Sequence record: MH752840.1
Length of the DNA stretch: 64,000 nucleotides
Origin: Escherichia phage vB_EcoM-Pr121LW
Direction: 5' to 3' (one strand)
This document shows positions 39,215-50,842 of the stretch, one piece after another. Position numbers and translations under genes: made by a program. Every line of letters begins with the position of its first letter. Positions within the stretch are counted from its first letter, which is position 1. The notes under the pieces are model-generated. The model was not told the DNA's origin. It made no database searches and saw only the letters and a program-made list of their open reading frames with translations.

Positions 39215-39639
39215 TGAGCACACATCCTCGTTTAGTAGATTGGCAAGAAAGATTGTGGAAAGTGTTTGACGAAGAGGCCACCATACCTTTTGAATGGGGA
39301 TTCCACGATTGTTGCACCTTTGCAGCCAAGTGTGTTGATGCCCAGTACGGAACAGATTTTCTTTCTAACTTCGAAGGAACGTATAAAACAGAGTTGGAAA
39401 GCAAAAGATGGTGCATGCTCCGTTTCAAAACCACACACCTGCCTACTATTTTTGATCTCTTTATGACTCGGCTGGATACTCATAAACAGGTTCAGCGTGG
39501 AGATATTGTCATTTTCGAAGGTCTGAACGGGCTCACCGCTGGTGTGTTCTGGAACAACCAGATTTGGGCGAAAGGTGATAAAGGGGTCTTTATGTTCGAC
39601 ATGAAAGATTCTATCGTTGTTGATGTCTGGAGGTATTAA
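39214..39639 (+). CDS. tail-tip protein (possibly lambda K-like)
   Basis: Start at ATG 39214 behind GGGAGG; Cys/His segment FEWGFHDCCTF; position just upstream of the J-like gene. Confidence 0.35.
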   Translation: MSTHPRLVDWQERLWKVFDEEATIPFEWGFHDCCTFAAKCVDAQYGTDFLSNFEGTYKTELESKRWCMLRFKTTHLPTIFDLFMTRLDTHKQVQRGDIVIFEGLNGLTAGVFWNNQIWAKGDKGVFMFDMKDSIVVDVWRY

Positions 39640-42600
39640 TGCCAATTGCAATGATTGATAACATCGTTGCTTCTGCAAGATCTTCAAGTTATGACTGGAA
39701 CGCATCCAAGGCAGCTCTGGCTGACAGCCTGAACACTGTTACCACCAGAACTCTGGATAAGATTTTTGAGGGCAACAAATCTTACAGAAGTCAGCAAGAT
39801 AGACAAAAGCTTCTCAGATCTTCTGCTGCACCCTGCTCTGTAGTGTATGGGAAGACACGCACGTCTGGGCTGCTTGCGTTTTTGGAGCAGGACAGAGACA
39901 GAACCCTCCATTGTGCCATTGTTCTTGCTAATCATCCTCTGGAAGGTATAGAAGACATACTCATCGACGGTAATCCTATTTCCTCGTATGGAGATCTGGT
40001 ATCGTGGGAGCTACATAACGACAGAAAAACATCTGATCCTTTCATGGGTACACACTGCCCATCGTGGTCACCAGATATGATAGGCAGAGGTATCAGTTGG
40101 CTGCGTGCCAGCTTCAAGTTTGACCCCAGTAAGTTTCCTTTTGGGTTGCCAAACGTTACACTGGTCAAGGTTGGTAAAAAATGCTATGACCCCCGCATCA
40201 GTAAAGAGGTGTATACCAATAACGCGGCCTTGGTGATCCTGGACTATTTAAGAACGTACCTTAAATGTCCTGACGAAACCATCAACTGGGAGTCCTTTAG
40301 GGAGGCTGCCAATATATGCGACGAGGCGGTAAAAAACGCTGACGGAACCAGTGAGCGACGTTACACCATTAACGGTGAGTTTGACATGGATGAGGCCCCA
40401 GCAAGTATTATGGCAGAAATGCTGAAAGCTTGCGGTGCAGACCTTAGTTATGTTGCTGGTAAGTATGGTTTGCTGGTTGGTGCATACTATGGCCCAGCAA
40501 CAATGACACTGAGTGAGGATTGTGTCTGTGGTGAGGTCAAGATCTATCCGGAAGCCTCCTTTGACAAGAGATCCAACACAATAACTGGCAGATTCACTAG
40601 TCCGACCAAAGGGTATTCTGAAACAGATTTTCCATCAGTGTTTGTCCCAGAGTGGATAGAGAAGGATGGAGAAAGAAAGATAATTGATATAGACTATCGC
40701 TTTGTTACCAGTCCTTATCAAGCTCAGCGTGTTTCTGCAATCTTCTTAAGACGTGCTAGAGCTGGCAGGATTATTGAAGTCACCTGCAATATGCGAGGTT
40801 TTAAATTTAAACCTGGCCGTTACGTTACAATGGACCTTCCAAGTATTGGTATAGTAGGCCAAGAAATGAGGGTTCTTGAATGGGAGTTCACCAAAAAGGG
40901 CGGTGTCAAGGTAAAACTTCGTCAAGATGCTAAAGAGTGGAATGATGCCACAGGGCAACTTCCGGATTCTGGTGATGTAGATATTCCGATATCTCCATCT
41001 GGTGTAGCTCAACCGCAAAACTTCAGATATTCCGTTCTCCAAGCCGGGGAAGTAACTCACGGTGTTTTGGCTTGGGACAACGTTGGAACTTACGCTCAAA
41101 ATATTGTGCAGGTAAGAAAGAACGGAGAGATTGTTTGGACAGCACAGACAGTTGAGCAGTTTGTCCGAGTAGAAGGCTTGACCAAAGGATCATACACAGC
41201 AACCGTGGTTGCAACATCTTATAAAGGTGGTGTATCTCCAGAAGCGTACTGCGAGTTCAACATTCAGGCACCTGAAGCTCCTGTTTCTGTGGAGGTTAAG
41301 CAGGGATACTTTGCTATTACCCTGATCCCGCACAGCAGAGACTTGGCTAGTGTAAGCACCCAGTACGACTTTTGGACATCTGGGATGACAAGATTGCCAG
41401 ATACCAGTGATGTAACAGTTACTTCAAAAGCCACTCGTATGGGTGTTGGTTCAACTTGGACATCTGAAGGTCTGCAGAACGATAAGATTTATTACTGGTA
41501 TATCAGGACAACAAATGCTTTTGGTTCATCTGCTTTTGTGGAGTGTGCAGCCCACTGTTACACATCCATAGAAGATCTTATGCCACAGATTGATGCTGAG
41601 TTCAAAAAGACAGAGACTTATAAAGAGCTTACCGCCAATCTTGATAATGCAGTCAAGGAAATGGATAAAAATGTTGGTGCAGTCAATGACCGTGTTACTA
41701 GCATTTTTGAAGAGCTTGGGGATACAATAGAGGGTGTTGTCAGAGAGACGACAGAAAAATTTACAGGGGTTAATGGAGAAATTTCTGCCCTTAACAGTAA
41801 GCTGGTAGCAGCTCAGCAATCCTTTGACGATAAACTTGCAGCAGAGTCTGGTAGGCTTGGGTCACTAATCGAGACAACAAATAGATCAACCGTTGATCTT
41901 GTTAATCGTAAAACTCAAGCATTGAGTGAGCAAATAACTGCAACTCAAGGTGCTCTGCGGGAAGAGTTGAAGAACACTGAGAGCAAACTTAACTCCTCTA
42001 TTCAAGAAACCAACAAGGCAACAACCGATCTGCTAAATAAGACAACGGAAGCTATTAAGCAGGATCTGGTGGCAGCTACAGGGAAGATCACCAAGCTGGA
42101 AGATGATGTGCAGAAAGAGGTTGCCAATCTGCAAGCATCTATTCAAGAAACTAATAGTACAACAGTTGATCTTGTTAATAATACAGCCACAGCGATCCGT
42201 CAAGAACTTACCTCTGCAAAACAAGAAATTGTTGACGAAATGGGTAATATTGATGAGCTCAGGGCTACAGTATCTAATACCTCTAAAGCTGTAACAACAC
42301 TTGAGGGTAAAATAGATGCTCAGTGGGGAGCTAAGATTCAGGTTGACAGCCATGGTAATAAATATGTGGCAGGTATCCAGCTGGGCATGGAGGGGTCTGG
42401 AGGACAAGTTCAATCATACTTCATGGTTAGTGCAAACAACTTTGCGGTATACAACCCCGGAAATGGAACAGCAACCCTTGCTTTCGCAATCAAGAACAAC
42501 CAAGCGTTCTTGAAAGACGCTTTTATAGAGAATGGCACGATCTCCTCTGCCAAGATCGCACAAGAAATTTCGTCAAACAACTACGATGGCAACGGGTACC

Positions 42601-43058
42601 ATAAATACGGTTGGTATATTAACAAGAACGGGCATGCCCAATTTATGGATGTGTGGGTGAAAGGCAACATCAACGCCAGTTCTGGTAACTTCACAGGGGC
42701 AGTTAATGCCACCAGTGGTACCTTCCGTGGAGATGTTTATGCCAATAATGGTAGCTTTAGAGGCACCATAGATGCAACCGGAGGTACATTCCGTGGTCGT
42801 GTAGAAGCTTCTGTTATCCGTGCTAACCAGTTCGAAGGTGCAATTGTTGCACACAGGACTTACGGAGATTGTGCTCCAGTGCATAACTCCCAGCAGAGGG
42901 TTTGCCGTTGGAGGTGGAGATACGTAGATAACGTTTCAGGTCAAGGTAAGAACGTAACATTCTTCTTTAAACTGAACGGTACTCGTGCCAACTCCCAACT
43001 AAATGCGTGGATAGCTGGTCATCAACTCCTTGCTGGCAAGAAGTACGGGAACGGATAA
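39639..43058 (+). CDS. lambda J-like central tail fibre protein, truncated by a tandem duplication
   Basis: 1139 aa; segments (YYWYIRTTNAFGSSAFVE; QWGAKIQVDSHGNKYVAGIQLGMEG ... NNFAVYNPGNG) match lambda J as I recall it; stop falls at the junction of the 127-bp repeat. Confidence 0.7.
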   Translation: MPIAMIDNIVASARSSSYDWNASKAALADSLNTVTTRTLDKIFEGNKSYRSQQDRQKLLRSSAAPCSVVYGKTRTSGLLAFLEQDRDRTLHCAIVLANHPLEGIEDILIDGNPISSYGDLVSWELHNDRKTSDPFMGTHCPSWSPDMIGRGISWLRASFKFDPSKFPFGLPNVTLVKVGKKCYDPRISKEVYTNNAALVILDYLRTYLKCPDETINWESFREAANICDEAVKNADGTSERRYTINGEFDMDEAPASIMAEMLKACGADLSYVAGKYGLLVGAYYGPATMTLSEDCVCGEVKIYPEASFDKRSNTITGRFTSPTKGYSETDFPSVFVPEWIEKDGERKIIDIDYRFVTSPYQAQRVSAIFLRRARAGRIIEVTCNMRGFKFKPGRYVTMDLPSIGIVGQEMRVLEWEFTKKGGVKVKLRQDAKEWNDATGQLPDSGDVDIPISPSGVAQPQNFRYSVLQAGEVTHGVLAWDNVGTYAQNIVQVRKNGEIVWTAQTVEQFVRVEGLTKGSYTATVVATSYKGGVSPEAYCEFNIQAPEAPVSVEVKQGYFAITLIPHSRDLASVSTQYDFWTSGMTRLPDTSDVTVTSKATRMGVGSTWTSEGLQNDKIYYWYIRTTNAFGSSAFVECAAHCYTSIEDLMPQIDAEFKKTETYKELTANLDNAVKEMDKNVGAVNDRVTSIFEELGDTIEGVVRETTEKFTGVNGEISALNSKLVAAQQSFDDKLAAESGRLGSLIETTNRSTVDLVNRKTQALSEQITATQGALREELKNTESKLNSSIQETNKATTDLLNKTTEAIKQDLVAATGKITKLEDDVQKEVANLQASIQETNSTTVDLVNNTATAIRQELTSAKQEIVDEMGNIDELRATVSNTSKAVTTLEGKIDAQWGAKIQVDSHGNKYVAGIQLGMEGSGGQVQSYFMVSANNFAVYNPGNGTATLAFAIKNNQAFLKDAFIENGTISSAKIAQEISSNNYDGNGYHKYGWYINKNGHAQFMDVWVKGNINASSGNFTGAVNATSGTFRGDVYANNGSFRGTIDATGGTFRGRVEASVIRANQFEGAIVAHRTYGDCAPVHNSQQRVCRWRWRYVDNVSGQGKNVTFFFKLNGTRANSQLNAWIAGHQLLAGKKYGNG

Positions 43059-43180
43059 CGTTTCAGGTCAAGGTAAGAACGTAACATTCTTCTTTAAACT
43101 GAACGGTACTCGTGCCAACTCCCAACTAAATGCGTGGATAGCTGGTCATCAACTCCTTGCTGGCAAGAAGTACGGGAACG
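42927..43180 (+). repeat. perfect tandem direct duplication, 2 x 127 bp
   Basis: 42927-43053 and 43054-43180 are identical base for base; 127 is not a multiple of 3. Confidence 0.9.
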
Positions 43181-43365
43181 CCAACGATGGCATGTGTGCA
43201 ATTGGGATAACAGGTCTAGGTGAACAAACTATAGACATTATTATTGAAATCTACACCCCGTGGTCAACGTCAAACGTGACAGGTGTCACAATCTCCTGTC
43301 CCACTGTGATCGTTAGTCGTTCTAACTCAAGCTTCCAGGGACCTTGGAACGAGTCTCACGACTAA
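43054..43365 (+). pseudogene. displaced C-terminal coding segment of the J-like gene (+1 frame)
   Basis: Frame +1 re-encodes DNVSGQGKNVTFFF...KKYGN from repeat copy 2 and continues ANDGMCAIGITG... to a stop at 43365; no independent RBS or ATG. Confidence 0.5.
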
Positions 43366-43370
43366 CCTTT

Positions 43371-43398
43371 AAAGCCCCGCTTCGGCGGGGTTTATTTT
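43371..43398 (+). terminator. rho-independent terminator
   Basis: Hairpin GCCCCGC-TTCG-GCGGGGT followed by a T-run. Confidence 0.7.
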
Positions 43399-43408
43399 TA
43401 TGCTCAGA

Positions 43409-43470: not shown

Positions 43471-44961
43471 GTGGCTAAGTATGGATTGACAGAGGCTGGT
43501 TTCGTTATACCAACCCTAAATGACCTAATCGTTGAAACTAAGCAAAGCCTGATCCGTGCTTTTGGCGAAAACTTCAACGTACAGAGTAACTCCGTTGCAG
43601 ATAAGCTGACCACTATCTTCAACGAGCGAGAGTATCAACTTATTCTTATGGCAGCATCTGTATACGCATCACAGACGCTGTATGGGGCAGAAGGTATTTA
43701 CCTAGACGAACTTCTTGGAAGACGGGGTATTTACCGAAGAGGCCGTTCTAAATCATCAGGTACCTGCCAGTTGACGATCAACACAACTGTTCCGTACAAT
43801 ATGATTTACGATTCCAAAACTTATACGTTGGATAGTGGCAACTTTGTTCTTAGCAATGATGTGCAAGTAGCAGGGAATCTTATTGCTCACAGAATAAATG
43901 CTCCAGACCTAAGGATTGGTAAATACAACTTTCAAATTACCAACCAGACAGATGGAAGTATCAAAACAAAAAGTCTGGTTTTAACAGATAAGGCTCTGGA
44001 CTCTTCTGATCTGCCAAGCTTTTACGGAGAGATTAAGCAATTCATTGTCGATAATACAACTCTGTTGAACGACGATTTGATTCAGATCGATATGTTGACA
44101 GGAACGTTGTGGATAGGGTACAATTCGAATCTTGACCAAGTTGGACTTAATAGTAGGGTAGATTTCAGAGTATCCCCGATTGTAGGGGAAAGAACTATCA
44201 CCCTAGATGTTATCGCTAACGAGGCTGGTGAGCTGTCAAGAGAGGCAGAAACCGTGACAACAATGTCACCTACTCCCAGTGGATTTATCAAGCTTACCAA
44301 CCGAGAAAGATTCAATGAGGGAAGGGATGTTGAGAAAGACTCAGAGTACCGCTTAAGAGCTTCCAGCACAAAACAGTTAACATCTAAGGCTACCCGTCCT
44401 GCAATCCTTAGCGCTGTAAGCGAGGTGAAAGGTGTTGAGAAAGTGAGAGTGTTCTCTAACAATACCGATAAAACTGATGCTAAAGGTATACCTCCTTACA
44501 AGTTCCAAGTGGTTGTGTTTGGTGGTGCAACAGAGGACATTTGCCAAGCACTTTACCAAACTATAGCCTGTACGAACAGGACTTATGGTAATATTTTCTA
44601 CGATGTAACTACATCTGACGGTCAAACTGAAAGAATTTATTATTCCAAGGCAAATACCTACCGCCTGGATGTAAGAATTACCTACTCCGGTGCTGCGCTT
44701 TCCACAACCGAAAAAGATGCCATTGTAGAGGCTCTTTTGCAGGTTGTTAACGGACTGGATGTTGCAGATACGTTGTACAATATCCAATTGGTCGGTGCTG
44801 CATCTGCTGCTGTGTCGATAGGTAGATTTAATAGACTGGTAATTCAAGTTAAACCTGTGGGTGCTTCTGATGAAGCTTACACTGCAAACGATATTGTTGC
44901 AAACATGACCGAGGTGTTTGACCTCGATGAAAGTAATATAACTTTCCAACAAACTATTTAG
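43471..44961 (+). CDS. baseplate J-like protein
   Basis: 496 aa, GTG start behind GGAGGA; N-terminal region resembles P2 gpJ / Mu gp47 family. Confidence 0.5.
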   Translation: MAKYGLTEAGFVIPTLNDLIVETKQSLIRAFGENFNVQSNSVADKLTTIFNEREYQLILMAASVYASQTLYGAEGIYLDELLGRRGIYRRGRSKSSGTCQLTINTTVPYNMIYDSKTYTLDSGNFVLSNDVQVAGNLIAHRINAPDLRIGKYNFQITNQTDGSIKTKSLVLTDKALDSSDLPSFYGEIKQFIVDNTTLLNDDLIQIDMLTGTLWIGYNSNLDQVGLNSRVDFRVSPIVGERTITLDVIANEAGELSREAETVTTMSPTPSGFIKLTNRERFNEGRDVEKDSEYRLRASSTKQLTSKATRPAILSAVSEVKGVEKVRVFSNNTDKTDAKGIPPYKFQVVVFGGATEDICQALYQTIACTNRTYGNIFYDVTTSDGQTERIYYSKANTYRLDVRITYSGAALSTTEKDAIVEALLQVVNGLDVADTLYNIQLVGAASAAVSIGRFNRLVIQVKPVGASDEAYTANDIVANMTEVFDLDESNITFQQTI

Positions 44962-47743: not shown

Positions 47744-48784
47744 ATGTCAAAACCTAGTTTTCCATTAGAGATTTGGGCAGAGGAGGATCAGGTTCTGCCT
47801 AACACCCACAGACAGAACAGGCTACGCCCGATTGATGATTTGTGGAGAAAAGGTTGGGATCTTGGTCAAAAGCCCTCATGTGAAGAACTTAACTATATTT
47901 TCAATATGCTCGGAACTTGGGCAAAATATATTGCTGACGAGCAGATCCCCGCTCAAGAAGGCCGTTATCTGGTACGCGATAATAACTTGAGTGATCTTTT
48001 GAACATTCCTGTTGCCCGTAGAAACCTTGGGATTATTACTAAGGAAGAGGCAGACGCCAGGTATGTAAAAGTTACAGGTGATACAATGACAGGCCCACTG
48101 GGTTTGCAACGTATCAACTTTAAAGCTGCCGAGACAGATAAGGCTTGGATAGAGACAACTATTGGCCCAGATAAGACAACTCTCGACTTTGGGTTAAGTG
48201 ATAATACCGGGTCGTTTGATGATGGTGGTACATCTACAGTAGATGCGTTTCGTTGGAGATTCCAGCCAACTCAACCGGATATCAATCCGGAGTTCACTTT
48301 GATGTACCTTAACGCGATCACGGCTAACCGTGCGCTGTTGAAAGTGATAGGCAATGTTGAAGTTGTCGATAACATGAGGTGCAATAACCTTACTATCAGC
48401 AATACAGCAACATTCACCAACTGTAATGTGGCTAGTCAGTTGACGGCTGGGTCAGTGTATGTTAATGGTGGTACAAGTTGTGACAGTATGGTTGTAAGAA
48501 GTCAGCACTGTGTTGTCGGTAACAGAAATGTGGTGCGCTCTGTGAATGGAGTGACGGCTAACGGTAACGGTGATGTAACAATCACTATCCCGCAGACAGG
48601 TGTGCAAGACATCAGAATCGGTGCAAGACTTGTTGACGGCGTTTCTGAATCTCCAATTCGCAACGGCTACGTTGTCACAGGCTGGCATTTCGGTGACAAA
48701 AAAGAGATGCGTGGTTCAACCTACTGGGCAGGACCTTTACAAAAACTTGTAAATGGTCAATGGATCACTGTTAATTATGCATAG
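47744..48784 (+). CDS. tail fibre protein, P2 gpH-like C-terminus
   Basis: 346 aa; C-terminal GPLQKLVNGQWITVNYA resembles the P2 gpH C-terminus; paralogue of the 49799 gene. Confidence 0.6.
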   Translation: MSKPSFPLEIWAEEDQVLPNTHRQNRLRPIDDLWRKGWDLGQKPSCEELNYIFNMLGTWAKYIADEQIPAQEGRYLVRDNNLSDLLNIPVARRNLGIITKEEADARYVKVTGDTMTGPLGLQRINFKAAETDKAWIETTIGPDKTTLDFGLSDNTGSFDDGGTSTVDAFRWRFQPTQPDINPEFTLMYLNAITANRALLKVIGNVEVVDNMRCNNLTISNTATFTNCNVASQLTAGSVYVNGGTSCDSMVVRSQHCVVGNRNVVRSVNGVTANGNGDVTITIPQTGVQDIRIGARLVDGVSESPIRNGYVVTGWHFGDKKEMRGSTYWAGPLQKLVNGQWITVNYA

Positions 48785-49768: not shown

Positions 49769-49798
49769 AGTCCTAAGGAATTTTCTCAGGAGAACGTG

Positions 49799-50842
49799 AT
49801 GACTAAACCAGTTATCCCTCTTGATATTTGGGCCAATCAGGATGTTGTGCTTGAAAATACGGGAGAATTGAATAAGTCCCAACCAAAAAAAGAAGAGAGA
49901 CTGAAAGGTTGGGATATGACACAAAGAGTGGCATGTGAAGTTGTTAACTTTGAACTTCACATGCTTTCTGCGTGGTTAAAGCATTTAACAGAAGATGTTG
50001 TCCCAGGATGGGATAATAGATTCTTAAGGGTCACTAATAATCTGGCAGACGTTCCAGACAAAGCTGCTGCACGTCAAGTTCTCAATGTATACTCGCCTGA
50101 AGAAATGGATGACCTTTATGTTGACAAGGCTGGAGACACAATGATCCAGACTCAAACTTTAGGTCTTCAAAGAATCGAGTTTGCATCCGCGTCAACAGAC
50201 AATGCGGCGATATACACCACCATAACTTCAGACAAGACGATGATGGATTTCTGGATTATGGACAACATCGGTGGTGCTGACGGCACAGACCTTGATGATC
50301 CCTCTCACCAAATAGACGGTTTCCGTTGGAGATTTCAACCTTCTGGTGGGCAGCCTGTGTTTTCAGCTATGAAGCTCAATGCTATAACTGCCAACCGTGC
50401 AAGACTGGCTATCCAAGGAAATCTTGAATGCAACGACGCAAAAAGTTCCTCTACAAATGCCAATGCAGCTACTATACCAAGAGCCACTGTTAATGGACAA
50501 CAATCCTGTGGAAGCGCTCAAATAGGTGGAAGAGTTGATTGCAACGATGAAACCGTCAGGGGCCAATATGCAACAGTTGGTGGAAGAAACGTGGTCCGCA
50601 GGGTAAATGGTAACAGCGCAGACGGTAGTGGTAACCTTACTATCCCTATGCCCAGCAGAGGGGTTGATGATGTGAGGATAGCAAACCGTTTCAAAACCAC
50701 CTACAGAGAGTCAAGAGTCTACCCTGGACATGTGATGTGCTCGGGTAACTACGCTTATAAACACCCTTATCAAGGTGATTACTGGACAGGTGCTATCCAA
50801 AAACTTGTAAATGGTCAATGGATCACTATATCTTATGCTTAA
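49799..50842 (+). CDS. tail fibre protein, second P2 gpH-like paralogue
   Basis: N-terminus PLDIWANQD and C-terminus GAIQKLVNGQWITISYA parallel the 47744 gene; start at ATG 49799 behind AGGAGA. Confidence 0.6.
   Translation: MTKPVIPLDIWANQDVVLENTGELNKSQPKKEERLKGWDMTQRVACEVVNFELHMLSAWLKHLTEDVVPGWDNRFLRVTNNLADVPDKAAARQVLNVYSPEEMDDLYVDKAGDTMIQTQTLGLQRIEFASASTDNAAIYTTITSDKTMMDFWIMDNIGGADGTDLDDPSHQIDGFRWRFQPSGGQPVFSAMKLNAITANRARLAIQGNLECNDAKSSSTNANAATIPRATVNGQQSCGSAQIGGRVDCNDETVRGQYATVGGRNVVRRVNGNSADGSGNLTIPMPSRGVDDVRIANRFKTTYRESRVYPGHVMCSGNYAYKHPYQGDYWTGAIQKLVNGQWITISYA

Follow-up and report, generated by a model that had tools for sequence, protein, structure and literature searches.

The 64,000-nt stretch of DNA analysed here (the window, from Escherichia phage vB_EcoM-Pr121LW, MH752840.1) contains a perfect 127-bp tandem repeat within the gene of a J-like tail-tip/fibre protein, and we infer, rather than prove, that this repeat is very likely an untrimmed contig overlap left by an assembler operating at k=127. 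The second copy is most probably not present in the phage DNA, and the J-like gene is most likely intact and ordinary. The direct observations behind this reading are the repeat itself, its exact length and identity, its absence in relatives, and the intact, conserved coding sequence that is obtained once one copy is removed.

The 127-bp repeat and the frame it interrupts

Tandem Repeats Finder reported positions 42927-43180 as a single array with a period of 127, 2.0 copies, 100% matches and no indels, and alignment of copy 1 (42927-43053, plus strand) with copy 2 (43054-43180, plus strand) gave 127 of 127 matching positions. A repeat search of the 64-kb window returned this array as the only long exact direct repeat, and the identity of the two segments claimed in the first-pass annotation is thus confirmed by both programs and by the bases themselves. 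The window belongs to the genome, approximately 137 kb in full, of an rV5-like E. coli myovirus of the genus Vequintavirus. Reading of the bases revealed that neither edge of the array can be extended, with A at 42926 set against G at 43053 on the left and C at 43181 set against G at 43054 on the right. The array thus amounts to two units of exactly 127 bp, and base-by-base inspection of both edges found no flanking microhomology. A perfect repeat of 127 nt cannot have originated by chance.

The J-like gene as read (39639-43058, plus strand) encodes a product of 1139 aa ending in ...KKYGNG*, as compared to 1199 aa in relatives with one copy. Copy 1 begins with the first base of codon 1097 and covers all codons up to 1138 plus one base, copy 2 is displaced by +1, and the join between the two (AAC GGA TAA) creates the TAA stop at 43056-43058 (plus strand) which closes the frame. 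The frame that runs through copy 2 is open up to a stop at 43363-43365, and its translation consists of the repeated 42-aa peptide followed by 61 further residues, ANDGMCAIG...WNESHD. The first-pass annotation had described both the junction stop, with the protein ending at 1139 aa, and a 61-residue C-terminus displaced into the +1 frame and reaching 43365; the former is corroborated by the ORF list and the translation, the latter by the translation. Deletion of one copy produces an open frame of 1199 aa, which upholds the accompanying proposal that collapse of the repeat restores a full-length protein while amending its length, given there as approximately 1198 aa, to that of the best 120 protein homologues listed, all of which are exactly 1199 aa.

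Beyond the array, the native 3' end of the gene (43181-43365, plus strand) comprises 61 codons, including the one begun at 43180, and the stop, and nothing but the extra copy puts it out of frame with the upstream ORF. Directly past the native stop lies an intrinsic terminator (43372-43400, plus strand) with a 9-bp stem containing six GC pairs and a subsequent T-run, which was graded as strong (43372-43393 plus the T-run). The next gene (43471-44961, plus strand), which encodes 496 aa and is annotated in relatives as a baseplate wedge or baseplate protein, begins after a gap of 105 nt from 43365, a spacing that matches all relatives.

Among 11 relatives, the 61 displaced codons contain 41 variable nucleotides, 30 of which occupy third positions; 23 variable codons are synonymous-only and 10 are amino acid-changing. 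Stops over the same segment in these relatives number zero in the native frame and 38-66 in the other two frames. This substitution pattern indicates purifying selection on the displaced codons in relatives across the genus, and points to the displaced segment as the true C-terminus of the J-like protein. When the C-termini of homologues were compared, as the first-pass annotation had proposed, all relatives were found to run on as far as the position equivalent to 43365, with variation concentrated at third positions, and none ends at residue 1139.

A single copy in relatives

The region is matched by 116 phage records at 80-99% identity, the best being phiWec196 at 99%, and one copy of the unit is present in about 111-116 phage genomes. 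Relatives among the matches listed have approximately 950 nt where the window has 1081 nt, in none of 111 records did a 100-nt probe centred on the junction find an unbroken match, and the annotated J gene of phiWec196 is 3600 nt in length. Eight independent contigs of 130-141 kb, drawn from ENA, Logan and NCBI, have J genes that encode 1199 or 1279 aa and invariably end 105 nt before the next gene, and a plasmid BLAST returned one 89%-identical relative, likewise with one copy. BLAST of E. coli genomes gave no hits, and look-ups of the exact 1139-aa, 690-aa, 346-aa and 581-aa products gave no matches. Two-copy alleles were encountered in none of the 111-116 phage genomes, the 10 long contigs or the best 120 homologues listed.

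Following removal of one copy, the window aligned without gaps to two Logan contigs, L013 and L014 (99.3-99.4% identical to it), over 14,280 nt and 12,057 nt, respectively, and to phiWec196 across 11,354 nt with just one gap, which is intergenic and 1 nt long. The gap-free alignment after removal identifies the extra 127 nt as the only structural difference.

The J protein nearest to that of the window (P0001, encoded on two Logan metagenome contigs) was considered as a possible re-assembly of the same strain, a notion which was rejected as six residues differ, including D at position 1139; P0001 is therefore just a close one-copy relative. The junction-specific 14-mer GGGAACGGATAACG, which is not present in a one-copy genome, yielded no matches in IMG/VR, GTDB genomes or JGI metagenomes; control patterns showed that these collections are nearly devoid of vequintavirus (0, 0 and 2 contigs, respectively), and these negative scans consequently carry little weight.

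The distribution of alleles also bears on the suggestion in the first-pass annotation of a programmed, reversible ON/OFF or host-range switch, in which recombination would interconvert a one-copy (full-length) and a two-copy (truncated) allele. The 127 bp of perfect homology would, as a formal possibility only, permit frequent collapse, and the location in the distal part of a fibre protein is in keeping with such a role. However, no second example was found among related genomes, metagenome contigs and protein sets, in which neither recurrence of both alleles nor variable copy number was seen; neither a recombinase nor repeat-prone sequence accompanies the array, the TTG/ATG candidate starts of the displaced ORF (43030, 43192) are not preceded by an evident ribosome-binding site, and every argument in favour of an assembly origin counts against a switch as well. 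With the second allele in 0 other genomes, the claim is unsupported and we regard such a switch as extremely improbable.

Origin of the repeat

The period of the repeat, 127, equals a k-mer size of SPAdes, being the largest default among the values considered (21, 33, 55, 77, 99 and 127) and the one employed for long Illumina or Ion Torrent reads, and 127-bp overlaps have been called an assembly artefact in several phage papers. In one phage study, 127-bp terminal repeats were removed, after which the genome was re-opened to match a reference (PMC8104045). Vequintaviruses are reported to be circularly permuted and are commonly assembled using SPAdes (PMC8407724), and by virtue of this permutation they assemble as cycles. 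From a genome of this kind, circular or circularly permuted, a de Bruijn assembler at k=127 produces a linear contig that begins and ends with the same 127-base k-mer. If this contig were subsequently re-opened at a conventional start, or if graph-adjacent contigs were joined, and the overlap were left untrimmed, a perfect 127-bp tandem repeat would be generated.

For the present record we infer that SPAdes was used at k=127, that the contig was re-opened and that the lysate was polymorphic at 43181. Copy 1 would accordingly represent the end of the original contig and copy 2 its start, and the seam would land within the 3' part of the J-like gene, where the overlap, as 127 is 3n+1, would look like a frameshift that brings in an early stop; the gene would in reality be 39639-43053 joined to 43181-43365, encoding 1199 aa. 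Untrimmed re-opening predicts a perfect repeat of length k that lacks microhomology, occurs singly and is found in no relative, and all of these features are observed, the single occurrence within the 64-kb window. The repeat is absent from independent assemblies of close relatives, and colinearity with these is regained upon its removal. An assembly artefact, which the first-pass annotation had listed last among its explanations, is thus favoured by the match between length and k, the 100% identity, the lack of microhomology and the absence from relatives, and also because the extra 127 nt is the only indel with respect to the closest relatives.

A physical 127-bp terminal repeat was also considered and rejected, since vequintaviruses are reported to be circularly permuted/headful and an end within a conserved gene is implausible. 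With regard to other members of the group (MT884008-MT884011), phages bov10K2 and bov11CS3 were given as 135,960 nt (PMC8407724), while the current GenBank.2 versions are 135,883 nt; the difference of 77 nt corresponds to another SPAdes k and suggests an overlap that was trimmed later. Escherichia phage BpE1AUH is a further Vequintavirus assembled using SPAdes, reported in 2026 with a CheckV 'DTR' (PMC13211470).

The repeat might instead be a real and very recent 127-bp tandem duplication in the stock, by which the J-like protein is cut at residue 1139 and its last 61 residues are lost, an explanation that we consider improbable. Such a duplication would constitute a loss-of-function or host-adaptation mutation that is prone to revert by recombination between the copies. 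It is present in the sequence as given, the zero divergence between copies suits a recent event, the decay of fibre genes during laboratory propagation is a known phenomenon, and the fibres of this family are redundant; this redundancy (PMC8594841) may tolerate the loss of a fibre tip on a laboratory host, and viability would therefore be compatible with a real mutation. A real duplication of exactly 127 bp is improbable yet possible, as its length would have to equal a SPAdes k by a coincidence of approximately 1 in several hundred. Moreover, its junction lacks microhomology, it is unseen in more than 110 relatives and in the best 120 homologues listed, and the segment lost is under purifying selection genus-wide.

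Alignment to 11 relatives identified 16 private substitutions in 10,380 comparable sites of the window (0.15%), of which two are located no more than 5 nt from the right edge of the unit (43176-43181, plus strand), a non-random clustering that is far beyond chance. The first, G at 43176, is synonymous, and the same private G is found in copy 1 at 43049, as would follow from an untrimmed overlap because the two copies would be one physical sequence. The second, C at 43181, is the first base past the unit and replaces Asp with Ala at position 1139 of the restored protein, where 11 of 11 aligned relatives and the closest protein have Asp. An 80-mer spanning this edge had no exact match among phage records, the best match being 97.5%. 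Asp1139Ala, which lies in the distal domain of the fibre, may reflect adaptation to a host within the stock that was sequenced. Were the duplication genuine, the two private substitutions at its edge, of which Asp1139Ala is non-synonymous, could mark selection on the distal domain or error-prone repair within it; the identical private SNP in both copies would, however, require that the SNP arose first and was followed by a duplication ending 1 nt before another.

An untrimmed overlap would account for the position of the seam if the de Bruijn cycle had been cut at a branching vertex, that is, at the 127-mer just before a site at which the reads vary. In a stock polymorphic at 43181, the contig would be expected to begin and end with the 127-mer 43054-43180. 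Against this argument, the cut would be expected 5 nt further to the left if 43176 and 43181 were both polymorphic and linked, and the argument therefore needs variation at 43181 alone. Two further candidates were rejected: opening of the loop at the lexicographically smallest k-mer, as the unit and its reverse complement rank mid-list in plain and byte-wise orders, and templating of the edge substitutions from nearby sequence, as GGGAACGCC occurs just once in the window.

Two other records are opened near the same spot. MG065652.1, 'Campylobacter phage C11', is a 58,772-bp contig, the record header of which is marked UNVERIFIED, and is actually a vequintavirus approximately 94-95% identical to the window. 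This contig (positions 1-129 aligned), which is independent and represents a different strain, ends 2 nt beyond the right edge of the unit, at the equivalent of window position 43182. Chance cannot account for so close an agreement, which may stem, for instance, from branching of the graph at a variable fibre tip. MW883061.1 (vB_EcoM_SYGMH1) is opened within the J-like gene, 172 nt upstream of the unit (equivalent to 42754/42755 of the window); the record has no terminal overlap, and its J gene is split over the record ends and unannotated. In MG065635-MG065690, approximately 18 unannotated 'Campylobacter phage' records are 90-98% identical to E. coli vequintaviruses, and these are probably mislabelled or contaminant phages.

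The clustered openings fit the idea of a fibre tip that may often be polymorphic in lysates or mixed samples. It is conceivable, albeit unlikely, that the duplication, or the heterogeneity that placed it, is real in the sense that the stock was polymorphic in the distal J domain (Asp1139Ala, with or without a revertible 127-bp duplication) and that independent vequintavirus assemblies would break at recurrent fibre-tip variation under host selection.

Significance and comparison with known systems

An assembly overlap (k=127) that escaped trimming, and not biology, most probably explains the feature, and the main value of this analysis is in the quality control of a phage genome record. Taken at face value, the record would lead to the annotation of a truncated fibre gene and an orphan ORF, and could give rise to false claims of a host-range switch. 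Perfect internal tandem repeats of 55, 77, 99 or 127 bp in phage genomes warrant a check of the reads before they are interpreted. If the lesion were true, it would represent a modest case of laboratory loss or modulation of one among several fibres in an rV5-like phage.

The J-like protein resembles the lambda gpJ/tail tip attachment family in carrying both Phage_Tail_Tip (PF09327; residues 878-1017, 132.1 bits against a cut-off of 22) and Ig_J_second (PF24489; residues 547-652, 104.6 bits against a cut-off of 27), and the scores of both J domains exceed the Pfam gathering scores, which supports membership of this family. In relatives, the protein is annotated as host specificity protein J, central tail fiber J or lateral tail fiber with FN3 domain. 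Matches to solved J-like chains, including lambda J, span residues of approximately 900-1033 and reach no further than approximately 1033, and the last ~165 aa, within which the repeat is situated, produced no matches in PDB sequences or Pfam; no counterpart of the C-terminal receptor-binding domain of lambda J was detected. The homologues available for the distal domain are 98-99% identical, and an alignment of them would lack the depth for a reliable structure model. In contrast to lambda gpJ, the protein possesses this extra C-terminal region of ~165 aa with the repeat inside it, and its host phage is a myovirus with several fibre sets, in which it is a putative central fibre or lateral fibre anchor.

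In close relatives (L003-L010) the J-like protein falls into two length classes, of 1199 aa and 1279 aa; the 80-aa difference is located upstream of the C-terminal region, and the position of the stop is the same in both classes. Vequintaviruses have three lateral fibre sets, for which the gene-to-fibre assignments are unclear (BASEL paper, PMC8594841). Elsewhere in the window, a 62-nt direct repeat of 84% identity (48722-48783 and 50780-50841) is found at the 3' ends of paralogous fibre-like genes of approximately 346-348 aa (47744-48784 and 49796-50842), which probably correspond to the paralogous short tail fibre genes that have been described in Vequintavirinae.

Laboratory lambda PaPa carries a single-base frameshift in stf, which was confirmed by sequencing and phenotype. 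Were the duplication real, it would be similar in that a frame-disrupting lesion affects a dispensable fibre gene of a laboratory-propagated phage; unlike the stf mutation, the lesion described here is of the length that marks an assembler overlap and is known from assembled sequence alone. The second comparison is with the SPAdes terminal overlap, the '127 bp artefactual DTR'. In that case the copies are positioned at opposite ends of the contig, whereas here they are adjacent and internal, and an extra step of re-opening, rotation or joining without trimming is consequently needed. The two are alike in that both concern a repeat of 127 bp with 100% identity that is absent from relatives, in a genome of the circularly permuted type that assembles as a cycle; the present repeat occurs only once within the 64-kb window.
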